Origin: Malacoraja senta
Taxonomy: Eukaryota
Reading direction: 5' to 3'
Assembly (NCBI GenBank): GCA_038087875.1
Contig: CM075992.1
Coordinates: forward strand, 11,162,001 to 11,226,000
Length of the DNA: 64,000 bases
Position 1 is the first letter of the stretch, and each line of letters opens with the position of its first letter. Below the pieces are notes generated by a model. That model did not search any database. It was not told the DNA's origin and worked only from the letters and a program-made list of their open reading frames with translations. Below, piece by piece: positions 3,419-62,302 of the stretch. The translations under genes were made by a program, and so were the position numbers.

Positions 3419-6088
3419 TTTTTAAATATTTTTTTTAATTAAAATTTTTATTAGAGGTATCCGCATATCATAGTCCAAACCAATACAAACTTTGTTTAAC
3501 GATTACATATTAAATATCCAGGGTTCCAGGGATCCAGTTACCAAAGTAGCTGGGGTCCTTTATCGGTTACATATTAACATTACCTCTAATTATTTATTTA
3601 TGTTTATAGATAATAAAACTAAAGAAATAAAGAGAAGAAATTAGAAAAATAAGATAAACTATCAATAATACAATTTAGGAGATAGGTCCGTAGGTCAGAA
3701 AACATAACTATTCATCTAGTCCTGGGTTCAGGTTTCAGTCAGGCCTCTGCGCCGACCCAGTCTACCCCTTCAAATAATCTATAAATGGAGACCATATTTT
3801 AGTAAATAATTCTGGTTTGTCAATTAAGACATATCTATTTTTTTCCAAATGTAAGGTCTCCGACATCTCCATAATCCACATCTTAATTGTGGGGGTTGCA
3901 GGGTTTTTCCAAAATTTTCATATTAATTTTTTCCCAATTATTATACTGTAATCAAGGAAATGTCTTTGGTTTGTTGTAAGTTTTAGGTATTGTTCTGATA
4001 TGCCCCAATATTATTAATTTAGGATCGGGATCCAGTTGAGTATTAACAACTGTAGAGATTATTTTAAAAATATCCATCCAGTAATTTTTAATTTTTATAC
4101 AATTTACAAAAGTATGGGTTAAATTACCCGCCAAATATTGGCATTTATCACAGAAAGGAGAGATATTAGGAAAGATTATATTTAATTTTGTTTTAGAATA
4201 GTGCAGTCTATGTGGTACTTTAAATTCTATTAAAGAATGTCTGGTATTTAATGAGCATTGATGTATATGTTGTAGACTTTCATCCCAAATATCTTTTGTT
4301 ATGGGTTGGGCTAATTCATTTTTCCATGCTAGTCTATATAATTCCGTCGACGGAATCTCACTGTCTAAAAGAGTATTATAAACGTAAGATATTAATTTAA
4401 CTGTATTAGGGTGTTTATTCAAACGTTCATCTAGAATCTCTGGTTTTCTAGTTCTGTAATTCTTGTGTATGTGATTTAACATAATCTTTAAGTTGTAAGT
4501 ATCTAAAAAAAATATTTGAATGTAATCCATAATTCTGTTGTAGCTCCTGAAACGAGAGAAAAATACCATTTCTATAAAGTTGTCCCATCTTTTTAATTCC
4601 ATGATTTTTCCATTGTACAAAACCTTTATCCAACACAAAGGGTTTAAATGAAGGATTATTTGCAATGGGGAGAGAAAGTGATAAATTATCCAATTTTAAT
4701 ATCGTTTTTAGTTGTTTCCAAATTCGAATACCACTATATATTATAGGGTTTTCACTATAGATTTTTTAATTCAATTTTGTAGGAGCTAACAGAATCAGAC
4801 CAATTTCAAAAGGCAAACAATCTTCCATTTCCATCTTTAACCAGTCTGGTTGTTGATCCATATATTCCAACCAAAAATTCATATTTTTTACATTAACTGC
4901 CCAAAAATAAAATAAAAAATTTGGTAAAACTAATCCTCCTTTGGTCTTGGGTTTGCATAGGTGCTTTTTGCTTATTCTGTGGTTCTTATAATCCCAAATA
5001 AAACGTGTCACTATAAAGTCAACTTTTAAAAATAAATTTTTTGGGAGATATATTGATTGAAAAAGGTATAGCAATTGCGGAAGGAAAATCATTTTTATAG
5101 CATTAACTCTACCGAGCATTGAAATGAGAAGTGTTTTCCAGTATTGGATATTCTTATGCAATTTATTAAGTAAAGGCATGAAATTTGATTTAAATAAAGA
5201 AGTATATTTCTTTGTCACATAAATTCCAAGGTATTTACATTTTTCATTGACTATTCTAAAAGGTGAGTGTTGCAATATATATGAATTAGGTTCCGTTATT
5301 GGCATAATCTCCCTTTTATTCCAATTAATTCTATATCCCGAAAATAAACCAAATTATAAGATTTAACAAGTGATTTCTGGATTTGTAATATATAATAATA
5401 CATCGTCTGCATATAGAGACATTTTATTAACTGTATTTTTAGCATTATACCCATATATTTCTAGATGTGCTCTAACTCTTTCTGCTAGTGGTTCAATAGC
5501 AAGGGCAAATAATAACGGGGATAACGGGCATCCTTGTCTGCAATCTTTAGATAAATCAAATTTTGTTGATAACATTTGATTTGTCATTATTCTAGCTGTT
5601 GGGTTAGTGTATAAAAGCTTAACCCATGTGCAAAACTTCTCACGCAATTGAAATGTTTCCATCACCGAAAATAAATAGTGCCGTTCCACTTGAACGAATG
5701 CTTTCTCAGCGTCTAACGAGATGACTGCTAGATCTACATTAGCTATTCTATTTCAGTATATAATATTAAATAATTGTCTCAGAATATAATATGAGTAGCG
5801 TTTTGGAATAAAGCCTGTTTGGTCAGGGTGTATTAATTTATGAATCACTAAACTTAATATATGGGCTAAAATTTTGGATAATATTTTCTGATCGGTGTTT
5901 AAGAGAGCAATTGCTCTATATGAACCTGGGTCTTCAGGGTCCTTATTATTTTGGGTATAAGTATTATTGTTGATTCATTTAAAGTTTCTGGTAGTTTCTG
6001 TTGCATGATGACATGAGTATATAGTGTCTGTAGGCGTGGAGAGATCAGATCATGGAATTTTTAAATATAATCTGCTATTTAAACCATC
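3419..6088 (-). mobile_element. 5'-truncated L1 (ORF2 RT to C-terminus, 3' UTR, poly-A), decayed
   Basis: Contains RT motifs RQGCPLSPLLF and SLYADD, then GRVNAIKMIFLP and CDKC..LTHTFVNC. A T-run at 3419-3437 is the poly-A. It is related to the L1s at 29.5 and 55.5 kb. Confidence 0.93.
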
Positions 6089-17982: not shown

Positions 17983-18966
17983 CTATAAAACAGAACTTAA
18001 AATAGAATTAGAAAAAGCCCCCGGTCTGGCGATAGGTTTGTTATAAAACCTTTGGTACGTCAGTTCATTAGACCATCCTGCAGCCGCTAGAATGTGGTCG
18101 AGAGGGATGTCCATATCCCTCGCTGCTGACGTAGATGCAGCCCTGGTGGAATGAGGCTTAAAAGTGTCAGTGTACCCTCCTGCACATGCCAGAACCTGTT
18201 TTATCCATCTTGAAATGGTCTGAACTGTAACCTTCCTATGAGGTTTTGTGTAGCTGATGAATAAAGATAATTCCGAGCCTCTTAGCCTCTCAGTGACCTT
18301 AATGTATTGTAGTATGTGTGTAACTACACACAACGATAGGTCTAAGGGGTATGCCATAAAAATTAATTTGAGCCCCGACACCCCTGGTCTGCTCTGCTTA
18401 ATAAAATCATAAACAAAAAAGGTAATATTGTCAAAAGATGAAACCATGCTGTCCAGTCTTAGTTTATTTAACGTCTGGACCCGTTGCGCTGAAACAAGCG
18501 CCATGAGCATGACTACCTTAAGAGTGAGATGAGGCAGAGATAGAGATGAAGCTGGAGCCCACTAGCGAAGCAGCTTGAGAACCACGCTCACATCCCATAT
18601 CTGTGAATATCGGGGCCTAGGTGGAGTGGAGTTAAAAATGCCCTTCATAAATCTTGTTATTAAGGGGTGAGATCTGACACTGTGGTTCCCTGACCCCAGC
18701 CATAAGTAAGATGATAAAGCGCTCCTAGCACTATTAATGGCACTATAACTGAGTTTCTGATCATAGAACAGTGTAGATAGGAACTCCAAAACATCCGTAA
18801 TGGAAGCCGTGTCATATGAAATTTTCAAGAGAGAGCAGTACATCTCCCATTTCCTTATATGAGTGAAGTACTGTTTCTGGATACTCTTCCTCCAGGCCGC
18901 AGTGATCACATCTACCGTACGATCTGAAAGTCCGAGCCCCAGGACCGGTCTCATCAGAATCTGCAA
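17983..18966 (-). pseudogene. DIRS tyrosine recombinase
   Basis: SAINSARSALS, SAQR (catalytic R), KQSRP, HSTR, GWS and FY motifs, with an internal stop at 18562. Confidence 0.92.
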
Positions 18967-20900
18967 ACCAATAAATTGATTCGGTCATGTAGTGGATGGT
19001 TTTCCCCTGTCACAGGATGAACCAGCAGATTCCTGCTATTGGGGACAGTCATAAAAGGCTGTGTAATCATACCTAGGATGAGTGGGAACCAATGCTGAGT
19101 AGGCCAGTCTGGTACTACCAATATGCCAGAAGCAGAGTCTTGCTTGATCTTGGCCAAGCACCGACTGATGAGGCAAAATGGGGGGGAAGGCAGACTGGAA
19201 CTTTCCACCCCGGTGTAGCGAGAAAGCATCTACTGCCACTGCCCCTGGGTCTGGTTCCCATGAAATGTAATTAGGTAACTGGTGATTTAGTGTAGATGCA
19301 AACAAGTCGATATCGAGATGCAAACAAGTACGCCATACCGAGCGACAATGTCGTTAAACACTTCATGGTTCAACATCCATTCTTTGTTGTCATTGAATTC
19401 CCGTGACCTGGTGTCCGCCACCGTGTTATATCTACCTGGTAAGTAGATAGCTGAAACCCAGATGTTTCTCGTAATACACCAGTGCCAAATAAGGTTAGAC
19501 AATTTATCACAGAATACAGACTTAATTCCACCCATTTGATTAATGTATGCCACCGCTGTAGTGTTTTCAGTCTGAAGTTGAACATGCACATGTGGCATAT
19601 TGCTACAATAAGCCCATTAGCCCATAGAGTGCTCCCAACAACTCTAAGTAGTTAATACCATCTGACTGAAGAATGAATGATTCCTGCATATTCCATCAGC
19701 CACCGCAGCTTGAGGCGGTGTTGGCAGCACCCCATCCTAGAGCACTAGCATCAGTTTATAGGATAACTGATGGTGTATCGACTAAAAGTGTACTGGAGCA
19801 ATGCCGAATATTGGTCACCCACCATTGTAACTCAGCAATGGCTTCAGCTGGCAACCGCATAGGTCTACCGAAGTGACCTTTATGAAGTTTGAGTGCCTGC
19901 TCCTTTGCACGTTGTAAGTTTTGGTAGTGCAAAGGCCCGAACCGAGCAGCTGGGAAAGCAGCCACTAATTTGCCAATTATACTAGCCACATGTCTAATAG
20001 AAGGTTGGTCCTTAACAATGAGATTGTTTCAGGCTTCAATTAATTCTAATTGCTTGCCCCTAGGCAGAGTCACTGACATGTGAATAGAGTTAATGGTGAA
20101 TCCCAAATAATCAATTACTCTAGATGGTACCAATTTGGATTTAACTGGATGGATGAGGAACCCCAATCTCTCAAACATGAGTTTGGTAGCTGACACAGAT
20201 AATTCAGCTAATTTCATAGTTTTCCCTATAATAAGGATGTCATCCAAGTATGCCATGACAATATGATTCTGTGCCCTGAGAAGCCCCAGGACTGGTTTTA
20301 GCAATTTAGTGAATAATCTGGGGGCTGAGGTTAACCCATTAGGCAATGCTTTAAACTGCCACAGTTGCCCCATCCAGCTAAACTTCAAATATCTCCGGTG
20401 ATCACCATGAATTGCCACCGAATAGTATGCATCTTTGAGGTCGATGCATGCCATATAACATCCCTTGGAAACCAGTTGTTTAGCAGTAACAAATTTTCCA
20501 TTTTGAAGTGTTTATACTGCACAAATGTGTTAAGCTCAGTCAAGTCAAGGATGATTCGGCATCCTCCATCCTTCTTTTGCTTAGTAAATATATTGGACAC
20601 AAATTGGTGAGACTCATGACACGACATCTCAATTACCCTTTTTGTGTGTAAAGATTCAATTTCAGCTTGCGCATCCGCACACTCCCGTTGTGAAAGAACA
20701 AATGTGTGGTTCGGTGTATGCTGTGTGGGTGGAGGCGAATTGAGAAGGAACTCAATTTGGAAACCTTGTATACTGTGCAGTATAAACGGATCTGAAGTTA
20801 TCCAATGCCATTCATTCAAGAACAATCGTAATCTCCCACCAACTTGTAACTGATCCATAGACAATGTGTTCCGCAAACAACCAGACTCACTTACCTCAAT
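18954..20900 (-). pseudogene. DIRS pol (RT, RNase H, Dam-like methyltransferase)
   Basis: IDLKDAY, LPNGLTSAP and YLDD (RT); ENTTAVAYINQMGG and YLPGRYNTVAD (RNase H); DLFAS and FPP (MT). Multiple frameshifts. Confidence 0.92.
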
Positions 20901-22140
20901 GATTATCGGCAGTATGGTGTTTGTTTCTGCCCCCGAGGTTTGGGGGGTAGGACTGTTGGAGGGCGCCATCTGCGCATCTTGAACATGGCTGGCTTGGGCC
21001 TAGCCCTAAAAAAGGCCTCTGTGCCTGTTGTTCGGGCTTCCCACCATATTCGGCGGGCTGTCTGGTGTTGAGAGGAGCATAGGGGTGCTGCCGCCGGAAA
21101 GATGAGGTCTTGAAAGATGTTGGGACCTTCATAAGCCCGACTGCTTTAGCCTCATCATCCAGCTCCCTGACCTGCTTAGGCAGGTCTTCCCCGAACAGGA
21201 GGTTTGGTGGTTGGATGTTCCCGGCCTTGCACAATGCTGCAAATTTGGGGTTCAGAGCAGGATGGATGGCATTCTTTCGCAGGCAATTTAACTCAAAATG
21301 TGCATTGCACATTAATGCCATGGCGTCCTGCTGAACATCTGAGAGGGGCCTCCCATCCACCGATCTGGCAAAGGCCGTGAGGCCTGAGGCGAGCAATCTT
21401 AATATTTTTTGTAATTTTACCTCCTGGGCTCTGACTCCCCCTCCAATGTAACCCCAGATGGAGAGATTTACCGCCGGGACATTCAATGAGGCACAGTTTG
21501 CCGGGGTATGGTACTTTGTGGTGGTTTCTTCCATGGCCTGATCTTGGAGCTGGTGAGAGGTCAGGTAATTAATGCTCTTGGCAAGATCCTCTCCCAGCGG
21601 TTCCCCTGTTAGGGACGGTATAGCAAATTTGGATGCCATGGGGGGCACTTCTGAATCTTGCCCTTCATGCCTGGTAGCATGCTCCCCATCTGTGCCTCCG
21701 TACTCAAAGTCAGTGTAGAACTGACCTCGTATACTCCCCTCCTCAGAGAGGGAGACATTGTGCAGCCCTGAGACAGGTGCCGCTGCCACGGGCTCTCCAG
21801 AATACCAGGGCTCAGATAGCTCCCTCCTTTGGAGCATGTCACTTTGGAGCAACCTCTCCATTAGGTGCTCCATGTGGGTCAGTCACCCATAGACGCTTCC
21901 CATTGAAGGAGGTGAACCCTCCTGGCCCGACTCGTCCGAGTCCACGGGCCTGACAAACTTATTGGTGGCTTTCCTCCCCAACAGGGTAGCCAAGGTGCTT
22001 TCTATCGGCACCAAGTCTGTAGCCGCTGGCTCCACTGCCAGCGACCCGGAAGGCGAAATCGGCAGCCGCCCGCTACCCGCAGTCCCACAGTCTTCAGTAG
22101 CCGGTTTCCCCGCGGCCCGCCTTCTCACCTTAGCCATGGT
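20896..22140 (-). pseudogene. DIRS gag-like ORF1
   Basis: Long ORF upstream of pol, homologous to ORF1 of copy 2 (PAVN..IWG, LLFGED), with a stop at 21883. Confidence 0.8.
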
Positions 22141-27249: not shown

Positions 27250-28220
27250 TTACAAAACAGAACCCAAATAGTGCGCCCAAATCCTTCTGTCGTGAGAACA
27301 GGTTTGTTGTAAAACCTTTGAAAAGTCCCTTCACTGGACCATCCTGCGGCCCCGAGGATTTGATCTAAAGTGCCCTCGCTGCGGATGTTGATGCCGCCCT
27401 GGTGGAGTGAGATTTAAACACATCAGTGTCCACTCCAGCACAACCTAAAACATGTTTCAGCCACCTAGACATGGTCTGTTCCAACACCTTTTTATGAGGT
27501 TTTTTGTGACTGATGAGCATCGTTGTTTCAGAGCCTCTAAGGCACTTGGTGACCTCAATATACTGACGTAAGTGCGTAACTACACATAGTCGCAGGTCAA
27601 TGGGGTATGCCATAAAACTCAGTTTGATCCCGGACGTCCCTGGCCTGCTTTGTTTGATTAAATCATAAACATAAAACATAATATTATTTACAGAAGAAAC
27701 CATGCTGTCCAGTCGTAGCTTTTGCAATGTCTGGACCCATTGCGCTGAAACAAGCGCCATGAGCATGACCACTTTAAGTGTGAGTTTTTGGATAGACAGA
27801 GATGTAATTGGAGCCCATTGACGAAGTAGTGTGAGAACTATGCTCACATCCCATATTTCCGTGTATCTAGGTCTAGGAGGGTTCTTGTTAAAAATTCCTT
27901 TCATGAATCGGGACACCAACGGGTGAGATCCGACAGAATGTTGTCCCGACCCTTGCCATAAATAGGAGGACAATGCACTCCTTGCACTATTTATGGCACT
28001 ATAACTCAATTGCTCGTCAAAGTGTAATGTGGCAGGGAACTCCAATACATCTGGTATGCTCGCAGTATGATAAGATATATTTGACTGTAGCAGTACATTT
28101 CCCATTTTTTAATATGAGATACATATTGTTTCTTAGTACTATCCCTCCAGGCCGCAGTAATCACATCCACCGTACAACCTGATAGTCCGAGCCCCTGGAA
28201 CGGTCTCGTCAGAATCTGCA
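27250..28220 (-). pseudogene. DIRS copy 2 tyrosine recombinase
   Basis: SAINSARSALS, KQSRP and HSTR motifs. The catalytic R appears as W (SAQW), and there are frameshifts and a stop. Confidence 0.9.
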
Positions 28221-29701
28221 AATCAACTGACATTAATACGATCATGTAAAGGGTGACTCTCTCCTGTCACAGGGTGAACCAACAAGTTGCTGCATTTGGG
28301 GACAACCATAAACTGCTGTATTATTAGTCTCAGAACCAGTGGGAACCATGGTTGTGTGGGCCAGTCGGGGACTACCAAAACGCCTGAAGCGGAGTCCTGC
28401 TCAATTTTAGTGAGGCATCGACTGATGAGGCAGAATGGGGGAAAAGCGTAAAAGAACATACCACCCTAATGTAGCGAGAATGCATCCCCTGGATCCGGTT
28501 CCCATGAGACATATTTTGGTAACTGGTGATTTAGCCTTGATGCAAAGAGGTCATTGTCTGGCAATCCATACTGGGTGAACATTTTTTTTTTTAAACGTTT
28601 GGATTCAGAATCCATTCTCTGTTGTTGTTAAACTTACGTGACCTCCATGTTATCTCTACCTGGTAAGTAGATTGCTGTGACCCAGATGTTCCTTGCTATA
28701 CACCAATGCCAGATGAGGTTAGACAGGTTATCACATGATAACAACTTAATTCCACCCATCTGATTAATATATGCAACTGCTGTGGTATTATCAATCTGGA
28801 GCTGAACATGCAAATCATGCATTGTTGAGCAGTACGCTTTTAGGCCATATAATGCTCCCAACAATTCTAAATAGTTAATCCCATGCATCTGGAGGATTAA
28901 TGCCTCTTGCTCATCCCATCTGCCGCCGCAGATAGAATTGGTATCAGTGGTTCCCCATCCCGAAGCACTAACATCAGTTTGCAAAACAACTGAAGGTTGA
29001 TTCCTCAGAATGTCATTAGAGCAACGCGAAACATTTGTTATCCACCACTGCAACTCAGTGATAGCTTCAACTGGCAACTGCATAGGTCTGTCAAAATGAC
29101 CTGCACGTTTTTTGAGCGCCTGTTCCTTGGCTCGTTGCAAAATTTGATAACGTAAAGGGCCAAATTGCACTCCAGGGAAAGCTGCCACCAATTTGCCAAT
29201 TTGCCAATTTGCCAATAACACTAGCCACTCGTCGGATGGAGGGTTGCTGCTCATCAATCAGATTTCTGCAAGATTCCATTAATTATAATCCTTTGGCTTT
29301 AGGCAGAGTCACTAACATTTTAGTTGAATCTATGGTGAACCCCAAATAATCAATGATTCTTGATGGCTTCAATTTAGATTTAGTTGGATGGATGAGGAAC
29401 CCCAACCTCTCAAACATGTTTGGTAACTGAAACAGAAAATTCAGCTGCTTCCTGAGTGTTGCCTACGATCAGAACATCATCCAAATATACCATCACAATA
29501 TGATTCTGGACTTCCGGTGGCGCCATGTTGGATTAACAGTCGTGCACCTAGCTCCTCTCCCGAAAAATTTCACGATTTATCGTGTAAAATGGGTCCAGAA
29601 ATTGGGATTGGATTTAAAAACCTTACCGGAGCTTCTGGTCGCCGCGCTGATGACGTCATCATTAAGCGCGATGTTTTAAACGGTGGTTTAAAGCCCTTTA
29701 A

Positions 29702-30860: not shown

Positions 30861-31636
30861 CTAGACTGTTATCTTTGGAATGTTGAATCAAGGACACTTT
30901 CTGTTCAAAACGAGTAAACAGCTGAACAGACGGGAATGGTATATACCAGAAGCATTTAATTGTTCATTAGATTATAATATTAAAACCAATTGTAAGAACT
31001 TATCCTATTAACAACTTAATAAGTTATTCATGTTAGATTAGAATACTAACAAAAATAAAAATAAAAAATAACGAACTAACATACTAATATGAATTTTTAA
31101 TAAATTGAAACCTTATCTATAAGTGGGAGGAGGGGATGAGAAACGAGCACCTGGCTTAGGCCCAGGGGCACGTCTCGTTAACCCCTTCAACCAACAGTTG
31201 ATTCTTATTGAAGTCAAAAGTATCGGTTTAATAACTAGTAGTTAAAATTCCGATATATATATATGTTATAATGAAATATACAGGGTAAAATTGTATTATA
31301 TATCTGAATGTGAGGCCCCGTTTTAATATTTTAATATGTTATGATTAACCAAGAGAGCGGAGCTATTTGTGTAACAACGCAATGGAAGTCAAAACAAGGT
31401 TTTTTCCCACCTACAGGTGGGGCACTCGCTACAGTGCCGACTATATTAGACACTGTATTTTCACTTTTATTTTTTATTTTTTATTACCACATAAACTCAC
31501 ATGTTTGTGTTTTGTGTTTAGTGATAAGCGTAAAATGGTATACCAACAAAACTTAAAAATTCAAAAGTTCCCCCAATACCAAAAGACCTGGGATATGGAT
31601 GCACCACAAGATTTAAAGGTACTATAATTATTCAAA

Positions 31637-34600
31637 ATGCATGACACTAAACAAAAGAACCTAGGAGGAATCTCATTTTGTAGTTGGAATATAAGAGGTA
31701 TTAACGAACCTATTAAAAGGGGTAAGATACTAGCTCAGCTGAAACTGTACAATTCTGACATTATCTTCTTACAAGAAACACACTTAAAATCTCAGGATCA
31801 AGTTAGGTTGAGGGCAAAATGGATAGGTCAAACATACCATTCTTCATTCACTTCGAAATCTAGAGGCACGTCAATCATTATAAGAAAAGGTATACCATTT
31901 AAAGCAAAGAATATCATAACAGATATAGAAGGGAGATACTTAATAGTTAATGGAGAAATTCATGATACTCCACTTACCTTGGTAAATATATATGCCCCTA
32001 ACTTTGACAACCCCCACTTTTTCAATAAAATTTTCAACATAATTGCAGAGTTTAACTATCAAAATGTTATAATAGGAGGAGACTTTAACTGTGTTTTAGA
32101 TCCGTACTTAGATAAATCAAGCCAAAAACAGAGAGGGAATATGAAATCGAAAACTGGGGAACTTCACATTACTTATATAAACAATACTAATATAGCAGAT
32201 GTTTGGAGAATTGTTAATCCAACTGGCAGGGAATACTCATTTTATTCAATGGTACATAAGACATACCCACGTATAGATTACTTCCTGCTGGATACAAAAT
32301 TAATCCCTCAAACATTTAACCCAACATACCACACAAATTCGATTTCAGACCATTCTCCACTAACTTTCTTTTTAAAACTGGAAGGAATGTTTAAGAATAA
32401 ATCGTTTTGGAGATTTAATTCTCAAATTCTAAAAGATCCACAAGCGAGTATATATTTAAAAGAACAAATCGATGCCTTTTTTTCAAATAAATGATACTCC
32501 AGATATATCGTCTACTGTATTATGGAAATCTTTTAAAGCATACATTAGGGGTATTATAATTTCATATCAAGCTTTTCAAAATAAAAAGAATAAGAATGAA
32601 CAAAGACAGTTAGAAGAACATTAGACAAATGGATATAGATAATGCTAAAGATCCATCAATAGATAAACATAATAAAATAATAATTTTGAAATTTAAATTA
32701 AATAAATTATTATCTGCCAAACTTATAAGACTTTTTCAAATTACAAAACAAGAGCACTTTGAATTTGGGGATAAACCGCATAAACTTTTGGCTCGCCAGC
32801 TAAAAAAACGAGAAAAGGAACATACTATACTAAAGATTAAATCAGATAAAGGGGAATTATTAACAACACCGAAGGATATTAATAAAAGATTCGCGCAATT
32901 TTATGAGAATTTGTATACATCTAAAACGACAATTGATTCCAATAATATCACAGAGTTTTTGGATAATTGTAATCTTCCAAAGTTAGAGCTGAAGGAACAA
33001 GAGGAATTGGGTGCACAAATTTCAATTAAGGAATTAGAAGATACAATAAACTCACTAAAGAATGGAAAAACACTAGGCCCTGATGGATTTACTAATGAAT
33101 TTTATAAAAGCTTTTATGATAAAATAATACCAAGATTACAAAAAATGTACCAATATGCTTTTAAAAAACAAATACTACCTGATACATTAGCGGAATCAAC
33201 GATTCCGCTAATACTTAAGAAAGACAAAGATTTAGAAGAACCGGGTTCATATAGAGCTATAGCATTGTTAAACACAGATCAAAAAATATTAGCGAAAACA
33301 TTAGCTAGAAGATTAAGTAAATACATTGGTAAATTAATAAACCCAGATCAGACGGGGTTTATCCCTAAGAGATACTCATCTAACAATATGAGATGTCTAC
33401 TCAATATAAGCACTCACACAAATTTGAAGATCAAGAATTATCAATTATTTCGCTGGATGCTGAAAAAGCATTTGACCAAGTAGAATGGAATTATATGGAT
33501 AAAGTATTACAAAAATTCCAACTGGGAGAGAATTTTATTCTATGGATCAAGTTACTATATAATAAACCTACAGCTAGAATACTAACTAATAACATATTAT
33601 CCTCGAAATTCCAACTATCAAGGGGAAATAGACAAGGATGCTCATTATCACCACAGCTGTTTGCTCTCATTATTGAACCGCTAGCAGAAAAAATTAGAAT
33701 ACACCCTGATATCCATGGATATAATACTAAAGATTCATATAATAAAATATCTTTATACGCGGATGATATATTACTGTACATTACAAAACCTCAAATCACT
33801 ATACCAAATATATTAAATTTAATTGAAGACTTTGGATCTTTTTCTGGATATAGAATAAATTGGAATAAAAGTGAAATTATGTCAATAAAACCGAAAGATT
33901 CAACCACATCTTTTAAAATTCCCTTTTAAAATAGCTACAGAAAAATTTAAATACTTGGGAATCGAAATTACTAGAACATATCAAGGTATGTTTAAGGCAA
34001 ATTTTGATCCCCTACTTAATAAATTAAACACACTAATTAAATTCTGGAAAACGCTCCCGATGTCTTTAATAGGCCGAATAAATGCAATAAAAATGATTTT
34101 TCTACCACAAATTTTATACCTATTTCAATCGATTCCTATATACTTACCAAAGAAGTTTTTTTAAAAACTCGACTCAGATATCACTAATTTTATATGGGAC
34201 TATAAATCACATAGAATACAAAAAACTCATCTGAATAAACCTAAAGTATTAGGGGGTTTAGCACTACCAAATTGTATGTATTATTATTGGTCAGTAAATA
34301 TTAAAAATATGATTCAACTGATGGATAACTCCGCCCAGCAAGTGGACTGGATTGTAATGGAGAAAGAGGATTGCTCCTCTGGAAACATTGGAGCGATCCT
34401 CCTCTCTCCAATGAAACTGAATAATATAAATGATAATAAGAACCCAATTATTCATAGTACAATCCGAATTTGGAAACAAATAAAACAAAATTTAAAATTA
34501 AGAAATGTATCACTTTTATTACCCATAGTTAATAACCCTTCGTTTAATCCCTCTATTATAGATAAAGCTTTTACACATTGGGATAGACTAGGAATTAAAA

Positions 34601-36378: not shown

Positions 36379-37730
36379 TCATTCATACTGAAACAATTGC
36401 AATCTACCCCCTACTGGTGACTGGTCTATAGAGGATATGTCCTGGACAAGCCCAGCTGCTCGTACCTCCATAGTTGCTGGGTTCTTTTGCCTCCGATATT
36501 TCGTGGGAATATACACTGGTGCTCGCCAATAGCGTAGTGATGGGGAACCCCGGCTTGGTCCTTGCCCTGCACCAGCGTCTGTGACCCGTCTGAAGGGGTA
36601 TAGTCGATGAGGCGGCATCTTGTTAGTCGGATGTGCCTTAATAAGGCCAATCGTCTTTGCCTCATCGTCTAAATCCTTGACTTGTTTAGCCGGGTCTTCT
36701 CCAAACAGTAAGTTTAGTGGCTGTATGTTCGTTGGCCTGCACAATGCTGCAAACTTCGGATTTAGTGTTGGTTTAATGGCGTTCTTTCTCAGGCAGTTAA
36801 TTTCGAAGTGGGCGTTACACAGCAGGGCCAACGTATCCTGCTGTGTGTCTGATAGTGGTGCCCCTTCGACTGATCGCCCAAATGCTATTATGCCTGATCC
36901 GAGAAGTTTTAAGACTTTCTGCAGTCTTATTTCATGCAATCGCATGGTTGCACCTATTTGCCCCCAGATAGCCTGATTCACAGTGGGCACTCTGAGTGAT
37001 GCACAATTTACACGTGTTTCGTAACGTTTTGAAGTTTCCTCCATTTTGTATTCTTGGAGCCGGTGAGAGGCCATATAGTTGATATTTTGAGCCAGATTTT
37101 CCTCCATTTCCTCACCAGCTCCTGCCGGTATGGCGAATCTGCATGCCACGTCCGGCACACCTGGAGCTAAGCTCTTGTGCCTTGAGGTATGCTCCTCTGC
37201 TATACCTCCAACTTCAGGGTCAGTATCATACTGCCCTGGCTCTCCCTGCTCTTGCATAAGGGAGGTATCATGCAGCCCTTGACATGGCGCTGCAGTTATG
37301 GCCCCCCATATAGACCCGCAGATTAATGGTTCCTCATGTTGGTACTGATCCTCCCTGCCGGAGGTTGCTAACGTGGTTTGATGGGGTGACCCATGAGAAT
37401 AGACTTCATGTTGCAACATGTTCTGCTGCTGCATCCTCTCTATGAGGTGCTCCATTTTGTCTAGGCGCCCCCAGACGTCTTTCATGGAAGGAGGTGAGTC
37501 TTCCTGGCCCGACTCATCAGAGCCACGGGCCTTACCGACTTCCTTTTAGCCTTCCTCCCTGTCGGAGTGGCTATGGTGCTCTGGGTTGGCACCAGAGTAG
37601 CTGCCCTGATTGATCTGCCGGCAGCTCTGGAGGTGAAGTGAGCGCCCGCCCGCTGACTGCACTCCCGCGGTCAACATCACTAATTTTCCCGGTGGCACTC
37701 CTCGTCCTCCCTCCAACAGATTTTTCCATG
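36379..37730 (-). pseudogene. DIRS copy 2 gag-like ORF1 running into pol start
   Basis: Homologous to 20896-21873 and continues into VGGRL, the pol N-terminus. Confidence 0.8.
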
Positions 37731-55300: not shown

Positions 55301-55693
55301 CATCCTTCCAAACTCCAATGAGTACAAGCCTAGTCTATTCAATCTTTCCTCATATGAGAGTCCCGCCATCCCAGGGATCAATCTCGTGAACCTACGCTGC
55401 ACTGCCTCAATCACAAGGATTAGGAGACCAAAACTGTACACAATACTCCAGATGTGGTCTTACAAGCGCCCTATAAAACTGCAGAAGAACCTCTCTACCC
55501 CACTTCCGGTGGCGCCATGTTGGACTAACAGACGTGCACCTAGCTCCTCTCCCGAAAAATTTCACGATTTATCGTGTAAAACGGGTCCAGAAATCGGGAT
55601 TGTTTTTAAAAACCTTACCGGAGCTTCTGGTCGCCGCGCTGATGACGTCATCATTAAGCGCGATGTTTTAAACGGTGGTTTGATGCCCTTTAA

Positions 55694-56843
55694 ATGAGTA
55701 AACTGTCACCAGCTGTGAGCCCTCAGAGAGCAGTGAAAAAGCTGCTGAGAGACCAGAAGAAGTCTGAAGCAGAAGTTACCTCTGAAGTCTCTGAAGTCTC
55801 TGAAGTGGCTGCAGAAATGGATACAAGATCTAAGAAAGAGTTTGATGACTTGAAGAAATCAGTGAAAAATATTAAAGATGAGATTTTGGACGAAAATAAA
55901 ATTATGATGGAAAATATGAAGGAAAATATGAAGGAAGATAAGAAGGAAATGAAGGAAAATATGAAGGAAGATAAGAAGGAAATGAAGGAAAATATGGCAA
56001 AAATGATGGAAGGAATGGAGAAGATGATGAGGGAATTAAATGCTGGTAACCAGAAGAATATGATTGATTCACTGGACATTATGAATAAACGAATTGATGA
56101 GGTGAAAGATGGACTATCAGAGAGAATGGACAAGATGGATGAAACTACTACGGATAAGTTCACGGCAGTGCTTGAAACAGTAGCTGCAAGTATGCGCACA
56201 ATTACGGAATTGGAGAAAAACACGGCTCGAATGGTTGAAGACATGGCGAAAATGAGGCAAGAACATGAGCAAATGAGGCGAGATAACGAACAAACTTCAC
56301 TACAGATGGTGACTCAACTGGAGAAAGTCTCAGTCAAATGCCTGGACCTGGAAGCTCGCTCTAGACGCCAGAATTTGAGAATTCTTGGAGTTTCAGAGGG
56401 AGCCGAAGGGGAGGATGTATGTGAGTTTGCCATGGGCTTGTTTAAACAACTGCTGAATCTTTCCAAAGAACCGAAAATCGAAGTGGCTCATCGTGTCCCA
56501 AGATTTAAACAAAGATCTGGTGCGGAATAAAACTTATCCACGACATATTATTGTGAAATTTCGGGACATTTTAGAACTGGAAGATGTTATGAGTAAAATC
56601 AAATACGGTGTGCAACTGCGGCTGGAAAATGACACTATTAAGATATTCAGGGACTACCCGTATGAAATTGTGCAAAAAAGAAACAAATTTGAGAAGGTTA
56701 AAGATCTTTTAAGAGGGAGAGAAGGGATCAGATATGGGATTTTTTATCCCGCGAAAATGCGTATTTCCTTTAAGGGTCTTGAAAAGTCATTTGTTAAACC
56801 TGAAGATGCGTTTAAATATGCCCAAACTATCATTGAAAAATAG
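55694..56843 (+). pseudogene. L1 ORF1, one frameshift
   Basis: Same motifs as copy A, with an expanded coiled coil. Confidence 0.92.
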
Positions 56844-57425
56844 AAAGGAAAGGGAGGTTTGGCAGATCTGAACCATTTTAAGCAATGCTTTGTCTGGGGA
56901 TAGTTACACTGTTATCTTTGGAATGTTGAATCAAGGACACTTTCTGTTCAAAACGAATAAACAACTGAACAGATGGGAATGGTATATACCAGAAAGCATA
57001 TAATTGCTTATTAGATTATAATATTATAACCAATTGTAAGAACTTATCCTATTAACAACTTAATAAGTTATGCATGTTAGATTAGAATACTAACAAAAAC
57101 AAAAATAAAAAATAACAAACTAACATACTAATATGAATTTTTAATAAACTGAAACCTTATCTATAAGTGGGAGGAGGGGATGAGAAACGAGCAACTGGCT
57201 TAGGTCCAGGGGCACGTCTCGTTAACCCCTTCAACCAACAGTTGATTCTTATTGAAGTCAAAAGTATCGGTTTAATAATTAGTAGTTAAAATTCCGATAT
57301 ATATATATGTTATAATGAAATATACAGGGTAAAATTGTATTATATATCTGAATGTGAGGCCCCGTTTTAATATTTTAATATGTTATGATTAACCAAGAGA
57401 GCGGAGCTATTTGTGTAACAACGCA

Positions 57426-57686
57426 ATGGAAGTCAAAACAAGGTTTTTTCCCACCTACAGGTGGGACACTCGCTACAGTGCCGACTATGTCAGACACTGT
57501 ATCTTCACTTTTTTAGTTTTTTTTTTATCACATAAAATCACTCGTTTGTGTTTTGTGTTTAGTGATAAGCGTAAAATGGACATACCAGCAAAACTTAAAA
57601 ACTCAAAAGCTCCACCAATACCTAAAGACCTGGGATATGGATGCACCACACGATTTAAAGGTACTATAATTATTCAAAATGCATGA
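57426..57686 (+). CDS. Putative small inter-ORF protein of L1 (86 aa), hypothetical
   Basis: ATG-initiated open frame whose stop overlaps the ORF2 start. The homolog at 31382-31644 has a 3-nt indel and a 1-nt frameshift. There is a synonymous bias in the 3' half. Confidence 0.4.
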   Translation: MEVKTRFFPTYRWDTRYSADYVRHCIFTFLVFFLSHKITRLCFVFSDKRKMDIPAKLKNSKAPPIPKDLGYGCTTRFKGTIIIQNA

Positions 57687-60600
57687 CACCACACAAAAGA
57701 ACCTAGGAGGAATCTCATTTTGTAGTTGGAATATAAGAGGTATTAACAAACCTATTAAAAGGGGTAAGATACTAGCTCAGCTGAAATTGTACAACTCCGA
57801 CATTACCTTCCTACAAGAAACACACCTAAAATCTCAGGATCAAGTTAGGTTGAGGGCGAAATGGATAGGTCAAACATACCATTCTTCATTTACTTCAAAA
57901 TCTAGAGGCACGTCAATCATCATAAGAAAAGGTATACCATTTAAAGCAAAGAATATCATAACAGATATAGAAGGGAGATACCTAATAGTTAATGGAGAAA
58001 TCCATGACACTCCACTTACTTTGGTAAATATATATGCCCCTAACTTTGATAACCCCCACTTTTTCAATAAAATTTTCAACATAATTGCAGAGTCAAACTA
58101 TCAAAATGTTATAATAGGAGGAGACTTTAACTGTGTTTTAGATCCGTACTTAGATAAATCAAGTCAAAAACAGAGAGGTAATATGAAATCGAAAACTGGG
58201 GAACTTCTCAATACCTATATAAACAACACTAATATAGCAGATGTTTGGAGAATTGTTAATCCAACTGGCAGGGAATACTCGTTTTACTCAATGGTACATA
58301 AGACATACTCACGTATAGACTACTTTCTGCTGGATACAAAATTAATCCCCCAAACATCTAATGCAATATACCACACAAACTCGATTTCAGACCATTCTCC
58401 ACTAACTTTCTTTTTAAAACTGGAAGGATTGTCTAAGAATAAATCGTTTTGGAGATTTAATTCTCAAATTCAAAAAGATCCACAAGCGAGTATATATTTA
58501 AAAGAACAAATGGAGGTCTTTTTTCAAATAAATGATACTCCAGATATATCGCCTACTGTACTATGGGAATCTTTTAAAGCATACATTAGGGGTATTATAA
58601 TTTCATATCAAGCTTTTCAAAATAAAAAGAATAAGAATGAACAAAGACAGTTAGAAGAACTTATTAGACAAATGGATATAGATAATGCTAAAGATCCATC
58701 AATAGATAAACATAATAAAATAATAATTTTGAAATTTAAATTAAATAAATTATTATCTGCCAAACTTATAAGACTTTTTCAAATTACAAAACAAGAGCAC
58801 TTTGAATTTGGGGATAAACCGCATAAACTTTTGGCTCGCCAGCTAAAAAAACGAGAAAAGGAACATACTATACCAAAGATCAAATCAGATAAAGGGGAAT
58901 TATTAACAACACCGAAGGATATTAATAATAGATTTGCGCAATTTTATGAGAATTTGTATACATCTAAAACGACAATTGATTCCAATAATATCACAAAGTT
59001 CTTGGATACCTGTAATCTTCCAAAGTTAGAGCTGAAGGAACAAGAGGAACTGGGTGCACAAATCTCAATTAAGGAATTAGAAGATACAATAAACTCACTA
59101 AAGAATGGAAAAACACCAGGCCCTGACGGATTTACTAATGAATTTTATAAAAGCTTTTATGATAAAATACCAAGATTACAAAAAATGTACCAATATGCTT
59201 TTAAAAAACGAATACTACCTGATACATTAGCGGAATCAACGATTACATTAATACCTAAGAAAAATAAAGACTTAGAAGAACCTGGTTCATATAGAGCTAT
59301 AGCATTGTTAAACACAGATCAAAAAATATTAGCGAAAACATTAGCTAGAAGATTAAGTAAATACATTAGTAAATTAATAAACCCAGATCAGACGCGGTTT
59401 ATCCCTAAGAGATACTCATCTAACAATATGAGACGTCTACTCAACATAATGCACTCACACAAATCTGAAGATCAAGAATTATCAATTATTTCGCTGGATG
59501 CTGAAAAAGCATTTGATCAAGTAGAATGGAATTATATGGACAAAGTATTACAAAAATTTCAACTGGGGGAGAATTTTATTCTATGGATCAAGATACTATA
59601 TAACAAACCTACAGCTAGAATACTAACTAATAACATATTATCCTCGAAATTCCAACTATCAAGGATGCTCATTATCACCACAGCTGTTTGCTCTCATTAT
59701 TGAACTGCTAGCAGAAAAAATTAGAATACACCCTGATATCCATGGATATAATACTAAAGATTCATATAATAAAATATCTTTATACGCGGATGATATATTA
59801 CTGTACATTACAAAACCTCAAATCACTATACCAAATATATTAAATTTAATTGAAGACTTTGGATCTTTTTCTGGATATAGAATAAATTGGAATAAAAGTG
59901 AAATTATGTCAATAAAACCGAAAGAGTCAACACATCTTTTAAAATTCCCTTTTAAAATAGCTACAGAAAAATTTAAATATTTGGGAATCGAAATTACCAG
60001 ACCATATCAAGGTATGTTTAGGGCAAATTTTGACCCCCTACTTAATAAATTAAACACACTAATTAAATTCTGGAAAACGCTCCCGATGTCTTTAATAGGC
60101 CGAATAAACGCAATAAAAATGATCTTTTTACCACAAATTTTATACCTATTTCAATCAATTCCTATATACTTACCAAAGAAGTTTAAAAAAAAACTCGACT
60201 CAGATATCACTAATTTTATATGGGACTATAAATCACATAGAATACAAAAAACTCATCTGAATAAACCTAAAGTATTAGGGGGTTTAGCACTACCTAATTT
60301 TATGTATTATTATTGGTCAGTAAATATTAAAAATATGATTCAACTGATGGATAACTCCGCCCAGCAAGTGGACTGGATTGTAATGGAGAAAGAGGATTGC
60401 TCCTCTAGAAACATTGGAGCGATCCTCCTTTCTCCAATGAAATTGAATAACATAAATTATAATAAGAACCCAATTATTCATAGTACAATCCGAATTTGGA
60501 AACAAATAAAACAAAATTTAAAATTACGAAATTTATCACTTTTATTACCCATAGTCAATAACCCTTCGTTTAATCCTTCTATTATAGATAATGCTTATAC

Positions 60601-61453
60601 ACAATGGGATAGACTAGGAATTAAAACGCTTGGTGACTTGTATGAAACTGGAAAATTACTTTCATTTCAACAATTACAAATAAAATATAAACTCGGAAAT
60701 AATCAATATTTTAAATAATTTCATATATGCGGCTATTTGAAAAAATATACAAAAGATCATTATAATAACCCAGTAGATGTATTGGACGAGGCAATGCAGA
60801 TAAAAGCGGAATCAGCAAACTTAATATCATATTTGTATAATATTATCTTAAATGTACAAATACCATCTACGGAGGGTATCAGAAGAGACTGGGAACAAGA
60901 GTTAGCTATTAAAATTTCAAAGGAAATTTGGAATGAATACTTATTAAACGTGCATAAATGCTCGATTAATGTAAGACACACTTTAATACAATTTAAAATT
61001 TTACATAGATTATATTATTCGAAAACTAAAATTCATAAAATTTTCCCAAATGTATCATCTATTTGTGATAAATGTCAATCCCAAGAAGCTACTATAGCGC
61101 ACTCATTCGTTTTCTGTACAAAAATTCAAAAATTTTGGAATGAAATTTTTGAAATCTTTACAAAGTTATTTAAAACAAGACTGATACCCAAAGCAGAATG
61201 GATTATCTTCGGTATAACGGAAGATGGTCCAGAACTAAATGTGTTTCAAAAGAAACTAATGGACTATGGGTTAATAACTGGAAAAAAGCTAATTCTAAAA
61301 TTTTGGAAGAAGGCTCCAATACCAACTATAAATATGTGGATTTCAAATATGTTTGAAACATTACACCTAGAAGAGATAAGACTCCTCCTAGCAGGTAAAC
61401 CAGATCACTTCCACCTGACGTGGTCTGCATTTATAGAATTATTACAAACATAG
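57679..61453 (+). pseudogene. L1 ORF2, few disablements
   Basis: 674-aa open EN-RT N-part, a small deletion in the QG motif, then YADD and C-terminal CDKC..HSFVFC. Confidence 0.95.
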
Positions 61454-62302
61454 GGTGCAAAAGTACTTTAAAAAATAAAATTGAGGTCAGGTAAAGGGGG
61501 ATGATAGTTGAAGAGTTGGTATGTCCCATTTACGTAATGCTCATAAAAATATTTGTTTCTCTCTTTTTCCTCTTTCTCTTTCTCTCTTAGTGTCTATTTC
61601 TTAACTCTTTTTCTTTTGTTTTTAATTTTGCTCTTATAGGGTCTTCGTCCTTTTTTGTTGTCACATTTCCTACACTTTCACATTTTCCTTCACTTTCTTC
61701 TTTCTTTCAATCTTTTCCTTTTCTAGTGTAAAAAATAAATGGAGTACATTAATTGTAAGAAGATATAAATGACGAGTACTAATGTATGTGGTTGTAATGT
61801 AATGTACTTCTAATAAATAAAAATAAAAAAATAAATAAAAAAAAAGAACCTCTCTACCCCTTAACTGAAATCCTCTTGTTTTGAAGTCCAAAATTCCATT
61901 AGCTTTCTTCACTGCCTGCTGTACCTGCACGCCAACTTTCAGTGACCAGTGTACAAGGACACCCAGGTCTCGCTGTACCTCCCCCTTACCTAACCTAACC
62001 GCCTTGAGGTAATAATCTGCCCCTTGTTGTTGCCACCAAAGTGGATAACCTCACATTTATCTATATTATGCTGCATCTGTCACGCATCTGCCCACTCACT
62101 CAAACTGTCCAGGTCACCCTGCAACCTCCTAACATCCTCTTCACAGTTCACACTGCCACCCAGCCAAAAACAAGTCAAAATATTTAGATATTAACAATAT
62201 TCCAGAAGATTCACTTTTAACCTTTGGGGATAATGATGTAGAAGAAATTGCAGAACAATTTGGCTTAAATGGTCTGCTTTGTATCAGGACCTTCAGAGAA
62301 TT

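Follow-up and report, generated by a model that had tools for sequence, protein, structure and literature searches.

Between ORF1 and ORF2 of the L1 retrotransposons of Malacoraja senta lies a reading frame which is kept open and ends at the start of ORF2 while its amino acids drift. This combination argues for a translated relay, and we consider it probable, from the pattern of substitutions and indels, that the spacer frame hands ribosomes to ORF2. Chances appear about equal that this relay is fed by a predicted shunt, in which pairing of the 5′ end with the spacer would carry ribosomes over ORF1. Jointly, an open, peptide-drifting relay frame together with a likely shunt over a long-range helix would be the best explanation of the data, and we lean slightly towards it. 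How L1 ORF2 is translated across spacers of hundreds of bases is treated as an open question in the accessible text of PMC5381506, PMC3894237 and PMC4072516.

The window (the whole stretch of 64,000 nt that was analysed) carries two such elements, copies A and B, which are L1 clade non-LTR retrotransposons of the fish type: they show a short 5′ UTR beginning GACTTCCGG, a long spacer, a poly(A) tail and a target-site duplication, and their 5′ consensus agrees with that given in PMC5381506. The target-site duplication of copy B is 16 bp long (55486-55501 and 61845-61860). Its ORF2 matches Exo_endo_phos (E 4e-17) and RVT_1 (E 3e-17) in Pfam, with zf-RVT under the cutoff (E 3e-4); ORF1 of copy A gives a weak Transposase_22 match (E 0.005), under the curated cutoff. 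Copy B has frameshifts in both ORF1 and ORF2. The ORF2-start motif of their family, here called A, has 1,905 exact matches genome-wide. The features used below are as follows.

55502..61844, + strand: full-length L1 copy B (short 5′ UTR, ORF1, spacer of ~0.83 kb, ORF2, poly(A))
55502..55509, + strand: 5′-terminal arm a (ACTTCCGG), complementary to the start region of the spacer frame
55517..55528, + strand: 5′-proximal short ORF of 3 codons (M-L-D-stop), the predicted shunt take-off
55541..55552, + strand: 5′ UTR arm b with a TAGCTCC core, 12 nt past the short-ORF stop
55694..56843, + strand: ORF1 of copy B, with a frameshift near 56520; would be looped out on arm pairing
56844..57396, + strand: AT-rich 5′ part of the spacer, with 13 AUGs ahead of the spacer-frame start and three AATAAA
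57397..57409, + strand: spacer arm b′ (GGAGCTA core at 57403-57409), complementary to arm b
57426..57686, + strand: spacer (putative relay) ORF of 86 codons, whose TGA at 57684-57686 overlaps the ORF2 start
57428-57434, + strand: arm a′ (GGAAGTC), over the spacer-frame start codon
57449..57466, + strand: hairpin ~24 nt past the spacer-frame start codon, with a CCAC-N6-GTGG core
57631..57635, + strand: UGGGA, resembling TURBS motif 1, 53 nt ahead of the stop; found in 2 of 9 representatives
57679..59703, + strand: 5′ part of ORF2 (endonuclease and beginning of the reverse transcriptase)
29509..29555, + strand: 5′ end of copy A (arm a 29509-29517, short ORF 29525-29536, arm b 29549-29555)
31353..31644, + strand: copy A arm b′ (31353-31365) and spacer frame (ATG 31382; ORF2 ATG 31637)

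Other mobile-element remnants lie in the same window. A 3′ fragment of another L1 family, holding the C-terminal part of ORF2, was recognised from the ORF list at 3952-5662 (− strand). Three further pieces on the − strand (17983-22137, 27365-29254 and 36379-37485), judged by eye from their translations, we take to be DIRS-type-like; they show reverse transcriptase, RNase H and tyrosine-recombinase-like frames.

A preliminary description had reported an 86-aa frame in copy B, and this frame is indeed present from the ATG at 57426 to the TGA at 57684-57686, with its stop 5 nt into ORF2 (ATG 57679). The 3-nt indel and the 1-nt deletion it listed between the copies are both there; the indel is a subfamily difference (86 vs 87 aa), while the deletion was found in copy A alone and makes its spacer frame end at 31627. 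Recounting the differences downstream of the deletion again gave 4 synonymous and 2 replacement changes. Two of these four synonymous differences (CCA and CGA) are limited to copy B among aligned family-A copies; they are thus likely post-insertion changes, uninformative on selection. The proposed coupling of the stop to the ORF2 start stood in part: the stop is kept near the ORF2 AUG across families, from 25 nt before to 11 nt after it, but the exact ATGCATGA overlap varies.

Among copies of family A, the frame is often broken. It is open in 22/30 nearest copies of B and 20/30 nearest copies of A, counts that are biased to close neighbours. When 30 copies were taken by the ORF2 motif, 4 were truncated, and the frame was open in 10 and broken in 16 of the 26 scorable ones; an 86-codon segment of ORF2, used as a control, was open in 24/30. 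Most breaks fall in T-runs. One premature stop is common to two related copies (L248 and L254). A second is shared by four A1 copies that have just 1-3 other minor alleles in common, so that recurrence is likely in this case. Premature stops in copies may also descend from a mobile broken source.

Openness itself was assessed by moving the observed changes to random sites of the same base, pairwise on real copies. Over four independent pairs, no new stop had arisen in the spacer frame where 7.5 were expected (product P 2.8e-4); in the remaining two sense frames of the same pairs, gains were 7 vs 5.9 and 5 vs 6.3 expected. Two further pair sets, confounded by private frameshifts in some representatives, gave 4 vs 10.1 (P 0.016) and 4 vs 11.0 (P 0.007). 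Between subfamily majority sequences of families A, C and E, there were no stops in the spacer frame over the compared segments and 2-15 in the other five frames. Net length differences inside the frame were 0, 3, 6, 9 or 12 nt in all 21 A and E subfamily pairs, while the gap just ahead of the start varies freely (17, 18, 22, 25, 27, 28 or 30 nt). We are therefore highly confident that the openness of the spacer frame is under selection. Its presence by chance, as a long open stretch of a T-rich spacer inherited by a young family, could appeal to the youth of family A and to the 16/26 unbiased copies that are broken, but it is very improbable, being largely refuted by the stop-gain test and by shuffling (P = 0.002 for the open stretch of a family-A copy vs 500 dinucleotide shuffles of the 450 nt before ORF2), and the frame is open across subfamilies ~30% apart, six families and other hosts.

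Five further L1 families, labelled C, D, E, F and G here, were collected by endonuclease-start motif searches and lie ~30-50% from family A in endonuclease DNA. Left out were 7 pattern hits other than L1 starts, 6 loci that were duplicated or incomplete and 3/29 new family-G loci without anchor, together with a run (X3) that gave only low-depth pieces of the same families. The search for the frame in related families, suggested by the preliminary description, found it in all five besides A: every one of the six has a long open frame ending near the ORF2 AUG. Eight representatives, picked as intact, gave P 0.002-0.040 against shuffles. In family E, 17/23 pattern-sampled copies were open, and 14/28 older copies of family C kept the AUG-to-stop distance in frame. 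The majority sequences of E7, G3 and G5 look broken as a result of homopolymer length calls; the individual copies L149, L237 and L244 can be read across all or most of the frame, G5 excepted. In L152, an E6 copy, an insertion of ~67 nt lies just past the ORF2 start region.

The details of the frame differ between families. Measured from the ORF2 AUG, its stop lies at +5 in A1/A2, C, D and F and at +11 in A3/A4; in most of E it lies at −10, in G at −9 and in E5, which is without the last 5 codons, at −25. It is read in −1 relative to ORF2 in A, E, C, D and F and in ORF2's own frame (0) in G. It starts at AUG-GAA in A, ACG-GAA in E and G and UUG/CUG-GAA in D; families C and F have in-frame AUGs. 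Two other descriptions were discarded. A fixed AUGnnSTOP overlap is true of A1/A2, C, D and F and fails in A3/A4, E and G; a −2 frame with a TAATG overlap in family G rested on two damaged copies.

Other hosts were reached by a metagenome scan with an endonuclease alignment, which returned 80 loci, of which 71 had the motif, 44 were distinct and 33 scorable. The frame was longer than 95% of shuffles in 21/33 elements. An ORF1 end was recognised at a distance of more than 150 nt upstream in 15/33, and 14 of these have a frame of at least 60 codons that ends at the ORF2 start. As the best of several candidate AUGs was taken, the result is slightly inflated.

The preliminary description had offered two readings of the frame: a small, possibly membrane-associated peptide of a tricistronic L1, or a selected uORF that delivers ribosomes to ORF2. 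We judge it improbable that the frame encodes such a functional peptide, under relaxed or positive selection. The open frame with its 3n indels would suit a peptide as well, and hydrophobic 19-mers (mean Kyte-Doolittle 1.5-2.6) occur in families A, E and G, but the other frames are equally hydrophobic: among the three sense frames, the spacer frame ranks first in hydrophobicity in just 2/9 representatives, and its hydrophobicity follows T-richness. Comparison of dN/dS between subfamilies, which the same description had proposed, gave a mixed outcome. Values are near 1 in most A and E pairs (0.61-1.49 in family E and 0.67-3.4 for the computable family-A pairs other than A1-A2); the peptide is favoured by 0.12 for A1-A2, the subfamilies of the window copies, and by 0.17-0.60 in family C. 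For the ORF2 endonuclease, dN/dS was 0.02-0.26 in both A and E, against 0.19-0.43 in C. Families A, E and G gave no sign of purifying selection on the amino acids of the frame, with family C weakly below 1. Synonymous codon changes in the frame numbered 29 vs 29.5 expected in the four-pair test. The families share no visible peptide likeness past the first three residues, and E5 has dispensed with its last 5 codons. No protein homologue was found in a 90% cluster search (47-151 aa), no Pfam domain over cutoff in the frame peptide and no usable match in Atlas, all of these searches being weak for such sequence. The peptide reading was thus not upheld, on the grounds of dN/dS near 1, the synonymous count and the hydrophobicity rank, while the uORF reading gains from the openness, the 3n indels and a stop kept near the ORF2 start across families, and would fit the relay we propose.

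Divergence of the frame (57426-57678 and its family E equivalents) is about 1/4-2/5 of the ORF2 synonymous rate, at all codon positions. The peptide reading can claim this low divergence too; being lower than that of ORF2 synonymous sites, it implies some constraint at the nucleotide level, and it suggests RNA-level constraint on the frame beyond the hairpin. Local folding of the frame was no better than that of shuffles (z −0.96), and Rfam over 55400-57800 gave nothing meaningful.

The hairpin lies 18-24 nt past the start in families A, E and G, with a common CCAC-N6-GTGG core and differing flanking pairs. It reaches −8 to −13 kcal/mol in 8/8 representatives and also appears in the local fold. 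According to PMC5902531, as far as its accessible text goes, a hairpin ~14 nt downstream helps weak starts.

The start of the frame is also linked to the 5′ end of the element. Both window elements start ACTTCCGG and carry TAGCTCC ~40 nt in, and the reverse complements of both are nested in their spacer, where GGAGCTA (57403-57409) is followed by GGAAGTC across the start codon. The complementary 5′ stretch is the first ~65 bases of the element, and its partner is the site just ahead of the frame start plus the start itself. Among 75 copies examined, 41 had such a 5′ end. The arm b′ site was the best duplex partner along the whole element in 19/39 copies and the second in 7. Helix strength ranges by copy from −9 to −39 kcal/mol. 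Most E1/E3 copies form perfect helices of 19-22 bp at −32 to −39 kcal/mol (strongest −38.7, in E1), with the next best site at about −21; the helix is 14-17 bp in E6/E7 and 10-13 bp in A, E2 and G. The window's family A is the weakest: in both window copies the helix has one mismatch and reaches −16.4 kcal/mol, about background, and it is in these copies that the predicted shunt is least evident. A mismatch in arm b weakens the helix in 4/6 young family-A copies (L325, L331 and the window copies at 55548 and 29556). Family A has amplified to about 1,900 copies despite arm b mismatches.

The arm flanks covary. Cognate arms average −22.7 vs −16.3 kcal/mol for non-cognate ones, cognate matching comes first of 120 permutations within family E, and at several positions of the helix 3-5 pair types occur. 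In just 4/10 rows and 5/10 columns is the cognate partner the best one, the arms were found through a shared core motif, and the permutation P (5e-6) is inflated by related groups. For the outer arm, the start-codon site was the best partner of arm a in 8/16 copies tested; it ranked 6/79 in copy B and 1/78 in copy A. Whole-molecule folding forms the long-range helix in 3/5 copies, those lacking it being copy B and one C1 copy. Family C has a different 5′ terminus which matches a different spacer site by its AUG (13-14 bp in 4/6 scored copies); in 6 copies of this family, no arm b′ was found beyond G-run matches. The spacer frame of family C (L061-L090) also carries CACTTC(C/T)GGCTCCGCC ~135 nt before the endonuclease motif, which resembles the 5′-terminal motifs of other families in the same orientation.

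In other hosts, 14/26 elements match a loose motif of short ORF plus arm, and the best partner lies in the spacer in 10/14 of these; a motif-free helix scan was significant in just 3/25. Four zebrafish elements (L1-16B, L1-13A, L1-13B and L1-1B) show arm-spacer matches of 10-18 bp, seen by eye in the supplement of PMC5381506, in rows to 400 nt. The open stretch starts at most 45 nt from arm b′ in 9/10 copies of this genome and in 5/10 from other hosts (1.7 expected). For L351, the second-ranked duplex site was used for this distance and was not counted as a match. The start itself lies 17-30 nt past arm b′, at AUG in A and ACG in E and G; in D, UUG/CUG lies ~45 nt past the arm.

A short AUG-initiated ORF was present in 38/41 of the 5′ ends (five families) and in 9/11 family-C copies. 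It has 2-3 codons (5 in one copy), which vary, and uses all three stops; it sits 15-21 nt from the 5′ end, with its stop 11-17 nt ahead of the arm. By eye in the supplement of PMC5381506 (rows to 400 nt), zebrafish consensus 5′ ends carry a 1-5-codon ORF in 17/17 cases. Many mammalian L1 5′ ends in the same supplement, again by eye, carry a short ORF on the YY1 site and nearly no spacer; it has 3-4 codons in human, cow, dog, pig, elephant, panda and rabbit L1. Its presence in mammals despite the lack of a long spacer weakens the specificity of the short ORF, which may have another cause, such as the YY1 site.

Taking these elements together, the route we favour would run as follows. A cap-loaded ribosome would translate the 2-3-codon ORF at the 5′ end, after which most ribosomes would rescan to ORF1. 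With arm b paired to arm b′ ~1.9 kb downstream, some would cross the helix base, skipping ORF1 and the 13 spacer AUGs, and land in an A/U-rich stretch, to start 17-30 nt later at AUG (A) or at ACG, UUG or CUG (E, G, D). The downstream hairpin might aid the start at the landing codon, and arm a, as a nested outer helix, might act as a gate that masks the relay start codon until the 5′ end is unwound. Ribosomes would then translate 75-95 codons of sequence that contains AUGs, terminate between −25 and +11 nt relative to the ORF2 AUG and reinitiate at that codon. Since scanning from ORF1 would meet 13 AUGs ahead of the frame start and others within the frame, the region has the look of one that is translated, not scanned. 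ORF2p would thereby be made at a low level from full-length RNA, as needed for cis-preference. Two findings run counter to parts of this scheme. Reinitiation after 75-95 codons usually needs a tethering element, and UGGGA is absent in 7/9 representatives; and the dN/dS of 0.17-0.60 in family C speaks against indifference to the peptide.

The strongest competitor, which we regard as unlikely though clearly ahead of the others, keeps the relay and lets ribosomes arrive otherwise: through an IRES, serial reinitiation after ORF1, or a spliced or internally initiated RNA, with the helix serving RNP folding, reverse transcription or transcription control. It fits all the openness evidence and the weakness of the helix in family A, and the spacer holds three AATAAA and what we take to be GC-box/ETS-like words. 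Serial passage through the spacer would meet thirteen AUGs between ORF1 and the frame start, and these arrivals leave unexplained that the frame starts right at arm b′. A spliced RNA is disfavoured in that an AG acceptor ahead of the start is not common to A, E and G. A subgenomic RNA predicts copies truncated at one spacer site, but among 30 unbiased family-A copies none has its first base between arm b′ and the frame start, and 4 start within the frame or downstream of it. IRES predictors do score 31-32/36 long vertebrate spacers, according to the accessible text of PMC5381506.

A further possibility, that the motif in the spacer duplicates the 5′ promoter in inverted orientation (an antisense promoter or enhancer) with the open frame as a by-product, is still less probable than a functional peptide. 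The conserved 5′ terminus, whose reverse complement makes up arms a′ and b′, is read as transcription-factor sites in PMC5381506, in the text accessible. The complementarity, however, runs into the variable flanks, including A-runs against T-runs, with G-U pairs tolerated, and a promoter copy leaves stop avoidance in one of six frames and the 3n indels unaccounted for.

If the shunt and relay are true, they would account for the low output of ORF2p from full-length RNA and for the persistence of long spacers, and reconstructed elements with a foreign 5′ UTR might perform poorly; an animal mobile element would, in addition, be seen to shunt ribosomes past a complete coding ORF. The ORF2 question would be answered specifically, through four cis-elements that can be separated and compensatory pairs that occur naturally. 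The long-spacer form is probably ancestral among vertebrate L1s. That long-spacer vertebrate L1s as a class use a shunt triggered by a short ORF over the whole of ORF1, followed by a peptide-indifferent relay ORF ending on the ORF2 AUG, we put forward tentatively, with the balance slightly against it. Such a two-step route to ORF2p would be new to retrotransposons.

Comparison with known L1s supports parts of this picture; the papers are cited for their accessible text. In mammalian L1 (Alisch et al. 2006, via PMC5972666 and PMC4072516), ORF2 initiation is reported to need termination of an upstream ORF near its AUG, as we propose here; in our elements, a dedicated third frame would take this role in place of ORF1, the stop of which lies 835 nt off. 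Retrotransposition of megabat L1 fell ~6.9-fold when the 3′ third of the spacer was removed and ~3.3-fold when the spacer AUGs were (PMC4072516). The promoting role of the same regions, for which its authors invoke small ORFs and reinitiation, is a likeness; that assay was in human cells, and the accessible text describes no conserved long frame or 5′ pairing. The fish L1s of PMC5381506 are the same element type, with a conserved 5′ terminus and a GAGCTCCG motif ~40 nt in. A dicistrovirus-like IRES is proposed there, with no shared spacer structure, and no spacer ORF, 5′ short ORF or 5′-spacer complementarity is described in its accessible part. Reinitiation across long spacers is called improbable in PMC3894237, and the extra L1 ORFs named in PMC5203782 are antisense only. 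No conserved spacer ORF or 5′-spacer pairing in L1 appeared in the titles and abstracts searched, a coverage outside which most subscription journals lie.

As in the TURBS of calicivirus and influenza B and in SART1 (PMC5972666, accessible text), the stop of a long upstream frame lies near or overlaps the downstream AUG, here at −25 to +11 nt, within the stop-to-restart proximity of TURBS. Unlike TURBS, stop position and frame vary, and UGGGA occurs in 2/9 only; unlike SART1, ORF1 itself is not the coupled frame. A TURBS assignment was considered and set aside: UGGGA is well placed in A1/A2 and G, but A3/A4 have lost it and E, C, D and F lack it.

A close parallel is the pararetrovirus shunt of CaMV, RTBV and RTSV, whose configuration, in the accessible text of PMC5902531, consists of a 5′ short ORF, a basal helix, a UA-rich landing site and non-AUG starts. 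In both cases a 5′-proximal short ORF ends before the ascending arm, an A/U-rich stretch follows the descending arm, the start codon is often non-AUG, and arm sequences vary while pairing is kept. Here, however, the bypassed region would be a whole ORF plus spacer (~1.3-2.2 kb) instead of a leader stem-loop, the predicted helix is long-range and of 10-22 bp, the gap from short-ORF stop to helix is 11-17 nt vs 7-8 nt in RTBV/RTSV (PMC5902531), and the landing start would open a relay frame, not the product. There is no large stem-loop before the first long ORF; since the enclosed region is ORF1 plus spacer, the L1 arrangement may be said to work like a pararetrovirus shunt rather than to be a member of that class. 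What is new here is that complementarity to the first ~65 bases of the element, with covarying flanks, covers both the frame start and the site just ahead of it; this locus adds multi-family covariation, a further arm, the short ORF and a connection of the arm with the place where the frame starts.
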